Below, one piece after another: positions 19,364 through 22,389 of a DNA stretch of 64,000 nt. Below the pieces are notes generated by a model. It had not been told where the DNA came from. It did not search any database and saw nothing but the letters and a program-made list of their open reading frames with translations. The stretch spans positions 480,001 through 544,000 of the forward strand of contig CAVRVY010000001.1 of the NCBI GenBank assembly GCA_963724765.1, read 5' to 3'. This DNA is from an uncultured delta proteobacterium (lineage in GTDB: Bacteria > Desulfobacterota > Binatia > Binatales > Binataceae). How positions within the stretch are numbered: position 1 is the first letter of the stretch; the number at the start of each line of letters is the position of its first letter. The position numbers were made by a program, and so were the translations under genes.

Positions 19364-19762
19364 ATGAAGCGGCGAATCGAACAGTTCAGCGCCCTAGGCC
19401 AGGAGGACCGCCTGGAGATCTTCCGCCTGCTAGTGCGCGCGGGGCCGCAGGGCAACTGCGTCGACGAGATCAAGCGCCGGCTCAAGATGGCGGGCTCCAC
19501 CCTTTCCCATCATCTCGACGCGCTGACTCGCTCCGGCCTGCTCGCAGCACGGCGCTCCGGTCGCTTCATCTTCTACGCCGTCAACTGGCGCGAGACTGGG
19601 AACCTGATTCGCTTTCTCACCGAGGATTGTTGCGCCGAGATGCACACAAGGCTCGCTCAGACCGCTGGCTCACAGCCGCCAGATAGACGTGGCACCAATC
19701 AAGATTCGTGTTGCGAAGAGGATCAATCGGCCGCCACAAGCACCATGCGCATGCGGCCCTAA
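19364..19762 (+). CDS. arsR: ArsR/SmtB family regulator (second copy)
   Basis: ALGQE.RL.IFRLLV.AG, STLSHHL, FL.EDCC, plus a second C-terminal CC. Confidence 0.9.
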   Translation: MKRRIEQFSALGQEDRLEIFRLLVRAGPQGNCVDEIKRRLKMAGSTLSHHLDALTRSGLLAARRSGRFIFYAVNWRETGNLIRFLTEDCCAEMHTRLAQTAGSQPPDRRGTNQDSCCEEDQSAATSTMRMRP

Positions 19763-19782
19763 ACTGCTGGGAGGCGAGAAAA

Positions 19783-20601
19783 ATGGGAGACCAGCCCACG
19801 ATAAAGGAACAGGTCAGGGAAAATTACGCGCGCGCCGCGCGCCGCGTCGTCAACCAGGAAAGTACCTCGTGCTGTGGCACGGCCGCTCCCGCGGGAAATC
19901 CGATCACCTCGAATCTGTACGCGGACGGCGAAACCGCCGCGCTTCCGGCTCAGGCGGTCGCCGCGTCGCTCGGCTGCGGTAATCCGACTGCGCTCGCCGA
20001 GCTTCGGCCGGGCGATACGGTGCTCGACCTCGGCTCCGGCGGCGGCATCGACGTGCTGCTCTCCGCGCGCCGCGTCGGCCCCACCGGCAAAGCCTACGGC
20101 CTCGACATGACCGACGAAATGCTTGCCCTGGCGCGCGAGAACCAGCGCAAGGCGGGGGCGCAAAACGTCGAGTTCCTGAAGGGCGAGATCGAGAACATCC
20201 CGCTGCCCGATAACTCGGTGGACGTGATCATTTCCAACTGTGTGATCAATCTTTCGGGCGACAAGGATCGCGTGCTGGCCGAAGCGTTTCGCGTGCTGCG
20301 CCCCGGGGGCCGCTTCGCGGTCTCGGACGTGGTAGTGCGCGGCGAGGTCCCGGCCGCCATCCGCCGCAGCGTGGAGTTGTGGATCGGATGCGTCGCCGGA
20401 GCGCTGGAAGAATCGGAGTACCGGGCGAAATTGAGCAGCGCCGGATTTGAGCAGGTCAAGGTCGAGCCGACGCGCATCTATCGAGCGTCCGACGCCATGG
20501 AGTTTTTCAGCCGAGCTGACCTCGACGTCGAAACAATCGCGCCTCTCGTCGACGGCAAATTCATGAGCGCCTTCGTGCGCGCTCGCAAACCAATCTCGTA
20601 G
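19783..20601 (+). CDS. arsM: Arsenite S-adenosylmethionine methyltransferase
   Basis: N-terminal [45 protein letters not shown]. Confidence 0.93.
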
Positions 20602-20742
20602 GGCTGCTCCATGGCAACGTCCGAAATATCGAGACGGTCTACTGCTGCCGCATGCCGCGTCGGGGAAATTTTCTTTGGCGACCCTGCATCGCGGCGAAGT
20701 GAGCAAACTCATGCAGAACAATCACGAATCTGAGCTGTTGGT
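20386..20742 (+). repeat. Copy 1 of a 357-bp direct repeat (arsM 3' end, intergenic region, sulfurtransferase start)
   Basis: Aligns without gaps to 22437-22793 (offset 2051); about 26 mismatches by hand count. Confidence 0.9.
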
Positions 20743-21544
20743 GACGACGGACTGGTTGGCGGCGCATCTTGACGATCTCGACATCCGTGTCGTTGATACG
20801 CGCAAGGGAGATGGCTACGCGATAGCGCACATGCCTGGCGCGGTCCGCTATCCGGCGCCCATAACCCCATTTCTCAAGGAAAACGGTCGCGTGCCGAGCG
20901 CCGAAAAGTTCGCCGGGATCATGTCAGAGATAGGAGTCGGCGACGAGAATCTCGTTGTCGCGTACGACGATGGAAACAACCTTTTCGCGGCGCGTCTCTG
21001 GTGGGCGCTAAATTATTATGGACATCGCAGAGTGAAGCTGGTGGATGGAGGGTGGGATCTCTGGTTATCAGAAGGTCGCCCCGTCACGGATGCGCCAGAA
21101 AGCGCGAGTCCCGCTCGCTTCACTCCGAAGATCGACGACCACTGTATTGCCGAAGGGGAAACGGTCACAGCGGCGATCGGAAATCCAGCTTGCGGTATTC
21201 TCGACGTTAGATCGGACAAGGAGTGGACCGGCGCCGATCCGATGGGCACGAAGCGCGGCGGACACATTCCAGGCGCGCTTCACTTGGAGTGGCGCGAGAC
21301 GATCGATCAGGCGAGCAAGCGCTTCAAACCCGCGCCGGTGTTGCGACAGATGTTCGCGAAGGCAGGGCTCTCGCCGGAAAAGGAAGTTATCACGTACTGC
21401 CAGGGCGGCATCCGGGCGGCTCACACCGCATTCGCCCTGCGGTTGGCCGGCTACGACCACGTCCGAAACTACGAGCGTTCCTGGGCCGAATGGGGCAACC
21501 GCGAGGACCTTCCGATAGAGCGCCCGCAAGGAGCCGCGAAGTGA
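20711..21544 (+). CDS. Two-domain rhodanese / mercaptopyruvate-type sulfurtransferase
   Basis: LVTTDWL, H(M/I)PGA twice, AARLWW, DGG, active loop [13 protein letters not shown]. Confidence 0.9.
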
Positions 21545-22389
21545 GGGGGCTGCTCTTCCTGTGCGTCCAGAACTCCGCCCGGAGCCAGATGGCGGAAGGG
21601 CTAGCGCGCAGGATTTTCGAAGATGCCGTGCGCGTACAAAGCGCCGGCTCGCGACCGGCCGGAGTCGATTCGCTCGCGGTCGCTGCGATGGCGGAGATTG
21701 GGATCGACATTTCCGCTCAGACATCAAAATCGGTCGAGAGCATCGATCCGCATAGCGTCGATACGGTGATCACGCTTTGCGCCGGGGAAGTATGTCCGGC
21801 CTTCTTAGGCAATGCTCGGCGGCTGCATTAGTCGATTGGGGACCCGGCTGCAGCAGGTCCCTCGCTTAGCGATGGCGGTCGGCTCCCAAAGTTTAGGGTC
21901 GCTCGGGATCAGATCAAAGCACGGCTTGAGGTGCTGGCTGCGTTGCGTGATGTTCCACTTGGTCCGGCCGCCGTGGAATTTCATTCCAGTATCCGAGTGC
22001 ACGATCTGGCCCGCAGCGCGCGGTTCTATTCCTGGTTGCTGGGGACTCAGCCGCGCGAATGGACCCATCGCTACGTGACCTTCATCTGCCCCGAACTCAG
22101 ACTTAACTTTGTACTGTTGGTATCGGACGGGAAGGAGCTCCATCACGACACGCTGTACCATTTCGGCATCGCGCTGTCGGACAGGCGTGCCGTAATCGCG
22201 GCCTATCACCGCGCACGCGAGGTAGGATTGCACATCGAAAAACCGGCTCGCACTACGTGGACTGGGACCCCGCTGCATGAGCTCTGGCTCGAAGATCCTG
22301 ATGGCAACCTGATCGAACTCTACGCCCGTCTGACCGAAGAAGAGATCGCTGAACGCCCGGCCGACGCACAACCTGTGTGGCTGGCATGA
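21541..22389 (+). CDS. ArsC arsenate reductase fused in frame to a VOC (ArsI/CadI-like) domain; one in-frame TAG at 21829-21831
   Basis: [19 protein letters not shown]...VCP, RLH*SIGDP (Trp expected), F...RDQIKAR; then H..IRV.DL..S..FY, YHFG and [12 protein letters not shown], all in one frame. Confidence 0.8.

Follow-up and report, generated by a model that had tools for sequence, protein, structure and literature searches.

A rhodanese linked to arsenic resistance operons, with selenoprotein relatives, as a candidate for arsenic-sulfur chemistry

Why should an arsenic resistance (ars) operon carry a sulfurtransferase? The question is raised by a 64-kb stretch of DNA from an uncultured Binatia bacterium (contig CAVRVY010000001.1, positions 480,001 to 544,000; the window, whose own numbering is used below), in which an intact gene for a two-domain rhodanese (rhd) stands between the methyltransferase gene arsM and an open frame for an arsenate reductase joined to a VOC domain (arsC/VOC). 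Comparison with related loci indicates that this rhodanese is probably a dedicated, unnamed accessory ars gene. The arrangement arsR-arsM-rhd-arsC/VOC is one unit behind a conserved palindrome, in a genuine but partly decayed ars island of the Binatia bacterium, and is made up as follows.

19338-19357, no strand: operator-like perfect palindrome ATTTCTA-N6-TAGAAAT, its last base 6 nt short of the arsR start codon
19364-19762, plus strand: arsR repressor of the ArsR/SmtB type (PF01022, PF12840; NF033788, 64.8 bits)
19783-20601, plus strand: intact arsM, arsenite S-adenosylmethionine methyltransferase (NF008823, 369.6 bits, passing the curated cut-off of 263)
20711-21544, plus strand: intact two-domain rhodanese sulfurtransferase of the ars-linked clade, 277 amino acids (aa) (two PF00581 matches)
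21398-21415, plus strand: catalytic-loop codons C230-Q-G-G-I-R235, with TGC at 21398-21400
21541-21828, plus strand: N-terminal 96 codons of the ArsC domain, with P-loop CVQNSARS, Cys78 and Cys83 (PF01451, 59.8 bits)
21829-21831, plus strand: in-frame TAG at the invariant Trp codon of the fusion family, from translation and alignment
21832-22389, plus strand: detached remainder of the fusion, comprising the end of ArsC (DP motif), the linker and an ArsI-like VOC domain (PF00903, 51.1 bits)

The sequence-only reading of this DNA had named arsR, arsM and a two-domain rhodanese with a CQGGIR loop, and Pfam and NCBIfam bear out the coordinates and families of all three. It had also placed an ArsR operator ahead of them. 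The palindrome has a single match in the window and none in 100 shuffles (0/100), and it recurs 5' of arsR in two related loci (L006, L008) and, almost unchanged, in a third (L007); we take it as a putative ArsR-binding site. The GTGA coupling that had been described is present, in that the GTG start of the arsC/VOC gene (21541) overlaps the rhodanese stop TGA (21542-21544). The ArsC-VOC fusion that had been read downstream is broken in the window, where the TAG divides its frame (21541-22389) into an ArsC fragment of 96 residues and a separate downstream part.

PF00581 matches the rhodanese in two stretches (120.8 bits), which confirms a tandem two-domain architecture, and the AlphaFold2 model has a pLDDT of 93.6. 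Its nearest solved structures are a rhodanese from Thermus thermophilus (1UAR) and a mycobacterial thiosulfate sulfurtransferase (3AAX), with a catalytic loop of equal length. Tandem architecture, overall length and a six-residue Cys...Arg loop in the C-terminal domain are common to the window protein and the two-domain thiosulfate sulfurtransferases (1UAR; the Mycobacterium CysA/SseA-type proteins 3AAX, 3HWI and 3HZU; Azotobacter RhdA, 1E0C). The window loop is CQGGIR, whereas theirs is CRxGxR (it aligns with CRIAER and CRIGER of the solved enzymes), and the window clade differs from them in being confined to ars operons, in having selenoproteins as sister groups and in scoring under all equivalog cut-offs. 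An alignment of 42 sequences shows no variation at C230 or R235.

The rhodanese stays under every NCBIfam equivalog cut-off, the best being that of 3-mercaptopyruvate sulfurtransferase (NF008557, 144.5 bits against 250), and by these profiles it is a superfamily member without a named equivalog. Neither NCBIfam nor the source annotations give it an ars name, and public sources label its relatives only 'sulfurtransferase'. The window's genome holds four other rhodanese matches, the closest 40% identical. A search of a plasmid collection with the rhodanese returned 60 records, all under 60% identity (25 of them listed at 33-38%) and all generic sulfurtransferases, and is uninformative on the clade. 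The ratio of nonsynonymous to synonymous substitution rates (dN/dS) is 0.19-0.20 against L006 and L007; the gene is intact and under purifying selection.

The loop bears directly on one possible role, that of a rhodanese-fold arsenate reductase like the eukaryotic Acr2/Cdc25-type enzymes. Arsenate reductases of this fold exist, and the window gene shares with them both the fold and the setting, since it sits in ars operons. However, the Acr2/Cdc25-type enzymes are single-domain proteins with an HCX5R loop, and the arsenate-reductase/phosphatase branch of rhodanese/Cdc25 is characterized by this seven-residue C-X5-R form. The window rhodanese has two domains and a six-residue C-X4-R loop, of the same length as in its sulfurtransferase and selenocysteine-containing relatives, and an ArsC is usually encoded alongside. 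The six-residue loop argues for transfer of sulfur (or selenium) rather than reduction of arsenate, and arsenate reduction is a very unlikely role.

A scan for relatives, with one genome per species, gave 358 stretches, of which the best 80 were kept (loci L006-L085). The codon aligned with Cys230 is TGA in 49 of these 80 loci, and the other 31 are Cys forms. An uninterrupted stem of at least 6 bp lies at +10 to +42 past this codon in 49/49 TGA loci, compared with 13/31 Cys forms, and the commonest stem core after the TGA is AUCCGUGC-GGC-GCACGGA. Because the TGA occupies the catalytic codon and is followed by a hairpin, the 49 loci are identified, by these sequence features, as selenoprotein genes (Sec forms, for selenocysteine). 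The presence of Sec in sister forms at exactly the position of Cys230 marks this residue as a redox or sulfur-transfer nucleophile. The window rhodanese, with TGC in place of TGA, is a Cys homologue of the Sec forms and not itself a selenoprotein. Its genome encodes SelA and SelB (selA and selB), so that the use of Cys is not forced by missing Sec machinery; no Sec-form orthologue was found in this genome. Rhodanese-related sulfurtransferase selenoproteins have been reported in surveys of prokaryotic selenoproteomes, according to the accessible part of PMC1088965. The TGA and hairpin of the window's relatives agree with such proteins, the window gene has TGC instead, and the published family may be the two-domain one.

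The Sec forms have surroundings of their own. Housekeeping relatives in Binatia and Dehalococcoidia are selenoproteins with a conserved hairpin about 13 nt past the TGA (49 loci between L015 and L084, for example L034:7667-7726 and L029:7664-7723), and the hairpin sequence differs in the Dehalococcoidia forms. In the Binatia Sec forms (L016-L076) the upstream neighbour is an enoyl-CoA hydratase gene, and downstream lie genes for a 294-aa protein that is specific to Binatota and belongs to no known family, for a membrane methyltransferase resembling ICMT/MddA and for two members of the inositol-monophosphatase family (for example L046:7820-8704 and L070:8806-9507). The 294-aa protein was considered as a diverged ArsC-VOC and rejected (hhalign probability 0.2%); in the Atlas it corresponds to Binatota hypothetical proteins only. 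One rhodanese among the relatives, that of L073, is damaged by a TAG at Trp98.

Phylogenetic analysis places the ars-linked rhodaneses together. A quick tree of 81 rows, from which L079 was omitted as too short and for which the 40%-identical paralogue of the window's genome served as outgroup, has the ars-linked forms in a single clade of 28 rows, with a support of 97 in the SH-like approximate likelihood-ratio test (SH-aLRT). In a careful tree of 63 rows, left after removal of 18 near-duplicates, the ultrafast bootstrap (UFBoot) and SH-aLRT supports are 100/98 for the clade that includes L029, a Sec form, and 100/99 for the Cys-only subclade. L029 is the sister of all Cys forms in the ars clade, and the clade as a whole branches from within the Sec forms of Binatia. 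This Binatia locus has its Sec form inside an ars operon, in the order arsR, rhd(Sec), arsC-VOC, acr3, arsM. The simplest history suggested by these trees is one recruitment of a Sec rhodanese into a Binatia ars operon, followed first by the change from Sec to Cys and later by transfer to Gamma- and Alphaproteobacteria. The polarity of this history is less certain than the monophyly of the ars clade because it depends on a long-branch outgroup. On that history, the case would document a selenoprotein recruited into a resistance operon and changed to Cys before its horizontal spread.

The two forms differ in distribution. A search at E<=1e-60 of 300 sampled genomes of the window's class together with the window's own genome gave matches in 76/301. 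Two other Binatia families match in 47/48 and 20/21 genomes, at 47-57% identity and with a TGA inside each listed match (the Sec form). In the window's own family 7/49 genomes match, six at 57-79% identity and one at 43%, and within its genus one of the five other genomes does. In two Binatia families the Sec form thus has the distribution of a core gene, and the ars form is patchy and island-like. A phylum-level search, whose sample holds few genomes of the window's class, matched 2/301 genomes.

The linkage of the clade to arsenic genes was surveyed in the flanks of the loci, up to 7 kb. A locus was counted as ars-linked if it had a tblastn match over a set bit threshold to ArsC, VOC, ArsM, Acr3, ArsA, ArsD, ArsJ or ArsI, and ArsR alone was excluded. 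By this measure 24/31 Cys forms are ars-linked, versus 1/49 Sec forms. Neighbour families were assigned from Pfam and NCBIfam scans of representatives (Acr3, PF01758; ArsA, PF02374; ArsD, PF06953), and genuine ArsI occurs among them (NF041414, 121 bits, with a 'CCYA' motif). Leaving out the window, the clade has 27 loci, with the following neighbours.

ArsC and/or VOC: 20/27, directly downstream in 11
Acr3: 17/27
ArsR: 16/27
ArsA: 12/27
ArsI: 9/27
ArsM: 7/27, in Binatia only

Core ars genes were found in 25/27 of these loci, and the survey of the sulfurtransferase clade proposed in the sequence-only reading is thus positive, for a clade with 100/98 support. The carriers are Binatia, Halomonadaceae, Paracoccaceae, Porticoccaceae and other Gammaproteobacteria, and their gene orders vary: arsM-rhd-arsC/VOC in Binatia, arsR-arsI-rhd-acr3-arsC/VOC in Porticoccaceae, and arsD-arsA-rhd-arsC/VOC and arsD-arsA-rhd-acr3...arsC/VOC in Halomonadaceae and Paracoccaceae, with no arsM in the Proteobacteria. 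An orthologous clade that lies in ars loci across lineages and across gene orders is what is expected of a dedicated ars-operon gene, and this is what was found. The suggestion that the rhodanese is an undescribed ars gene is supported by this comparison. Its proposed tie to arsM holds in Binatia (the seven loci plus the window) and is lost elsewhere, so that an arsM-centred thio-methyl pathway is not general. According to database records the proteobacterial carriers come from Andean salt-lake material. One of them, the cultured type strain Vreelandella vilamensis DSM 21020 (L063), has an intact arsD-arsA-rhd-arsC/VOC operon.

The most frequent neighbour, the ArsC-VOC gene, was checked in 17 related loci, and in 13 of these it is a single continuous open reading frame (ORF) of about 280 residues. 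The site of the window's TAG is a Trp in the 13 continuous homologues (motif 'RLHW[PS]IxDP'; W95 is invariant in the fusion alignment). The TAG is matched without differences by contigs of run X3 (21815-22026) and run X4 (21717-21944), which belong to two different studies; since these agree, and at most one of the runs can be the window's source, the TAG is not an assembly error. The window fragment retains the P-loop, C78 and C83 of a thioredoxin-type low-molecular-weight-phosphatase ArsC, but the TAG cuts off the DP motif and leaves no intact ORF for such an enzyme. Both halves of the window gene have dN/dS values of 0.16-0.24 against L006 and L007 (0.16-0.22 for the VOC-bearing remainder), compared with 0.15-0.23 for the intact L006-L007 pair. 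Because the halves lie in the range of the intact pair, the alternatives are a recent nonsense mutation and continued use of the ArsC and VOC pieces. TAG accounts for 1688/5509 single stops that split two long open frames and for 2284/7485 terminal stops, both about 31%; this comparison, which is an insensitive test, gives no enrichment that would point to recoding of TAG. Damaged ArsC-VOC genes occur elsewhere too, frameshifted in L009 and truncated or disrupted in L008 and L011, and an in-frame TAG is also found in a distant rhodanese paralogue of the same genome (L005, G000:C3:537018-537770, 31% identity).

The window ArsC domain is 42% identical to Bacillus subtilis ArsC (1JL3), a thioredoxin-coupled enzyme like that of Staphylococcus aureus pI258, with a TM-score (target) of 0.80, and the nearest solved relative of the VOC domain is the C-As lyase ArsI (5C4P, 5DFG; 26-27% identity). 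The H/H/E metal triad is common to both, H9, H68 and E120 being invariant in the fused VOC domains and in genuine ArsI, whereas the vicinal Cys pair with which ArsI binds trivalent organoarsenicals is replaced by T-W in the fused domain. Unlike ArsC and ArsI themselves, the protein is a fusion of both and stays under both NCBIfam cut-offs: the window pieces score 80 bits for arsC_pI258 (cut-off 174.3) and 56.1 bits for ArsI_CadI (cut-off 116), intact homologues score 117-127 bits for ArsC against the same cut-off, and NF041414 gives 46-56 bits for the fused VOC domains. The fusion is widespread, with 3560 clusters at 90% identity (E<=1e-20, in the length range searched), usually beside acr3, and carries generic names only, 'arsenate reductase' or 'VOC family protein'. 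Its combination of an arsenate-reductase domain with a metal centre like that of ArsI makes it a possible reductase-lyase acting on pentavalent organoarsenicals, an idea that is independent of the rhodanese.

What chemistry could a sulfurtransferase contribute to such operons? In arsenic chemistry monothioarsenate corresponds to thiosulfate, as arsenite does to sulfite. By this analogy the rhodanese could interconvert thio-arsenic(V) species and As(III), moving sulfane sulfur between them; such arsenic-sulfur (As-S) transfer is a plausible proposal, to which we give somewhat less than even weight. Cys230, in its six-residue sulfurtransferase-type loop, would probably cycle between thiolate and persulfide according to monothioarsenate (S-AsO3) + E-S(-) <-> arsenite + E-S-S(-), and thiolated methylarsenicals would by the same reaction yield the trivalent monomethyl and dimethyl species MAs(III) or DMAs(III). 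With the persulfide stripped of its sulfur by cellular thiols, the net flow would be a desulfuration. The rhodanese would then be to thio-arsenic(V) as ArsC is to arsenate, supplying trivalent arsenic to efflux by Acr3/ArsA, to ArsM and to ArsI-type lyases. Net desulfuration would explain why the gene occurs in operons of the inorganic type as well as in those with genes for organoarsenicals. The reverse direction, thiolation of As(III) or methyl-As(III), had been suggested in the sequence-only reading; it would use the same chemistry and is equally possible chemically. At nine positions the ars clade has a substitution or deletion relative to the Sec forms of Binatia, among them Arg for Asp at 31 and Gly for Phe at 88, and these clade-specific positions could mark an altered pocket. 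The bolder claim, that the clade is the first family of enzymes devoted to arsenic-sulfur chemistry, making or breaking As-S bonds in thioarsenates and thiolated methylarsenicals, born from a Sec rhodanese and spread with ars islands, is put forward tentatively and has the odds against it.

According to the accessible text of PMC13051750, sulfidic soils, rice paddies and alkaline lakes contain thioarsenates and thiolated methylarsenicals as important arsenic species, some of them very toxic. Searches of the open full-text literature yielded no paper describing this rhodanese as an ars gene, and no enzyme for thiolation or dethiolation of arsenic, that is, for forming or cleaving the As-S bond; the word 'rhodanese' occurred in 0/20 listed papers on thiolated arsenicals. 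The accessible passages hold a few mentions of such proteins near arsenic genes. In Thioalkalivibrio jannaschii a rhodanese-related sulfurtransferase by the arx/ars cluster is upregulated at 5 mM As(III) (PMC6620896), and an ars cassette of Xanthomonas oryzae includes 'a sulfurtransferase', without study of it in those passages (PMC8477397). Two further mentions were set aside: that in Fusibacter concerns another protein, with NADH-dehydrogenase and rhodanese domains (PMC9751042), and that in Lucifera, as far as the accessible text goes, concerns another protein or gives no function (PMC6315149). With an ars-confined rhodanese clade as a concrete candidate, the question of enzymatic As-S chemistry becomes testable. 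If the proposal is true, genes would encode part of the thio-arsenic cycling in peat, paddy soils and alkaline salt lakes that passes for 'abiotic'.

Several points weigh against this proposal. The As-S reaction is drawn from a chemical analogy. The association of Cys forms with ars genes is a single phylogenetic event, and because of this the contrast between Cys and Sec forms does not consist of independent observations; some rows are not independent either, the rhodaneses of L012 and L013 being identical, L006 and L008 belonging to one metagenome-assembled genome (MAG), and L010 and L011 to another single MAG. Two clade loci depart from the pattern: L052 shows no ars gene, with a downstream flank of just 940 nt, and L049 has only an adjacent ArsR. 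The operons of Halomonadaceae and Paracoccaceae are of the inorganic type (ArsD/ArsA/Acr3), which fits thioarsenate and, equally, general thiol support. In a reciprocal survey, 80 metagenome loci were fetched with the fusion alignment, some with short flanks; a rhodanese match was found in 0/80, and of the nine with a full-length fusion none has a rhodanese in the available flanks, all nine lying beside Acr3 and/or ArsA. It follows from this 0/9 result that the rhodanese is an optional addition to ars operons and not an obligate partner of the fusion. Finally, the window's own island, with a split acr3 and a nonsense codon in arsC/VOC, may not fully function here. The intact relatives (L006, or L063 from the cultured type strain) are better experimental material, the window's island being partly decayed. 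The real argument for an ars role is that the linkage persists through rearrangement and transfer between phyla.

The inorganic-type operons bring in a competitor to As-S transfer, a support function that has no contact with arsenic. Under arsenic stress the rhodanese would mobilize sulfur, turning thiosulfate or persulfides into sulfide and low-molecular-weight persulfides, for cysteine and thiol pools, for Fe-S repair or for freeing As(III)-blocked dithiols needed by ArsC, ArsM and the cell. By sequence and fold the protein is a generic two-domain rhodanese like the thiosulfate sulfurtransferases, it occurs in purely inorganic-type operons with arsD-arsA-acr3, and the ArsC-VOC fusions found in operons without it are as expected of a helper. 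If homologous to the clade, the upregulated Thioalkalivibrio protein (PMC6620896) is also in keeping with such support. However, with four other rhodanese paralogues in the genome a general function needs no dedicated copy, the clade carries fixed substitutions with respect to its housekeeping sisters, and a general helper would not be expected to keep so strictly to ars loci. We rate thiol and sulfane-sulfur support as a possibility on the improbable side.

A narrower role would be that of a partner to ArsC-VOC, as a sulfur or redox relay that regenerates the ArsC cysteines or passes an As-S intermediate to the ArsI-like VOC domain. The rank of ArsC and/or VOC as the commonest neighbour, so often directly downstream, and the GTGA start/stop overlap in the window are in its favour. 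It is made unlikely by the lack of any rhodanese near the nine full-length metagenome fusions, by the acr3 that separates rhd from arsC/VOC in Porticoccaceae and Paracoccaceae, and by the window itself, where the rhodanese is conserved while its supposed partner has a nonsense codon.

The single recruitment event also suits a gene that has no arsenic role and merely travels with mobile ars islands. Such islands move as blocks, and that of the window shows decay and a relic of duplication. Against this, the gene has been kept inside operons in at least three gene orders and in three bacterial classes, its dN/dS is about 0.2, and in the window it is intact while its neighbours decay. Mere hitchhiking is on these grounds very unlikely.

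The remaining features of the island are given below.

13204-14297, minus strand: acr3 arsenite efflux gene (TIGR00832), split in two overlapping ORFs (13204-13887 and 13782-14297)
14538-15365, plus strand: ArsR-ArsC fusion gene (ArsR/SmtB helix-turn-helix (HTH), then low-molecular-weight-phosphatase-type ArsC), directly upstream of the gapdh-arsJ pair
15368-16429, plus strand: ArsJ-associated glyceraldehyde-3-phosphate dehydrogenase (NF033735, 562.6 bits, cut-off 450)
16420-17673, plus strand: arsJ, organoarsenical efflux transporter of the major facilitator superfamily (NF033734, 567.3 bits, cut-off 400)
17754-18926, plus strand: pstS-type phosphate-binding protein within the ars island (TIGR00975, 352.5 bits, cut-off 205)
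22437-22793, plus strand: relic duplicate, a direct repeat that takes in the 3' end of arsM, the spacer between arsM and rhd and some 26 codons from the start of rhd

The two acr3 ORFs match TIGR00832 separately, one over positions 148-327 (220.2 bits) and the other over positions 1-152 (220.5 bits), and neither reaches the cut-off of 282.8; the split is either a frameshift or a sequencing error. A second ars locus in the same genome, on contig C3, has an intact acr3 (182522-183511, 450 bits), and because of it the damage in the window's island may be tolerated. The ArsR-ArsC fusion scores 63.9 bits for NF033788 (residues 7-80) and 57.7 bits for arsC_pI258 (residues 115-246), the latter under the cut-off. 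The gene order arsJ-pstS-arsR is common to the window, L007 and L008.

In the arsR translation (19364-19762) two vicinal cysteines follow the HTH (C89-C90), and another pair stands at C116-C117. With no third Cys in the residues that follow the first pair, the repressor presumably resembles the MAs(III)-selective ArsRs, which is a hint only. The arsM translation contains the Cys-bearing motifs SCCG, GCGNP, NCVINL and GCVAG. A sigma-70 promoter scan of 18900-23100 gave 0 sites, and no RNA data set was listed as containing the stretch.

The relic, its extent set by blastn, is 92% identical over 300 nt to the functional copy 2051 nt upstream. No such duplicate was found 3' of the VOC gene in the relatives; in the window, its junction with the VOC gene is spanned with zero differences by a 465-nt contig of run X1. 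The ars island adjoins a heavy-metal efflux system of the resistance-nodulation-division (RND) family, of CusA/CzcA type, on the minus strand (6554-12520; pump, adaptor and TolC-like outer-membrane protein), and the stretch is present in peat and soil metagenomes.

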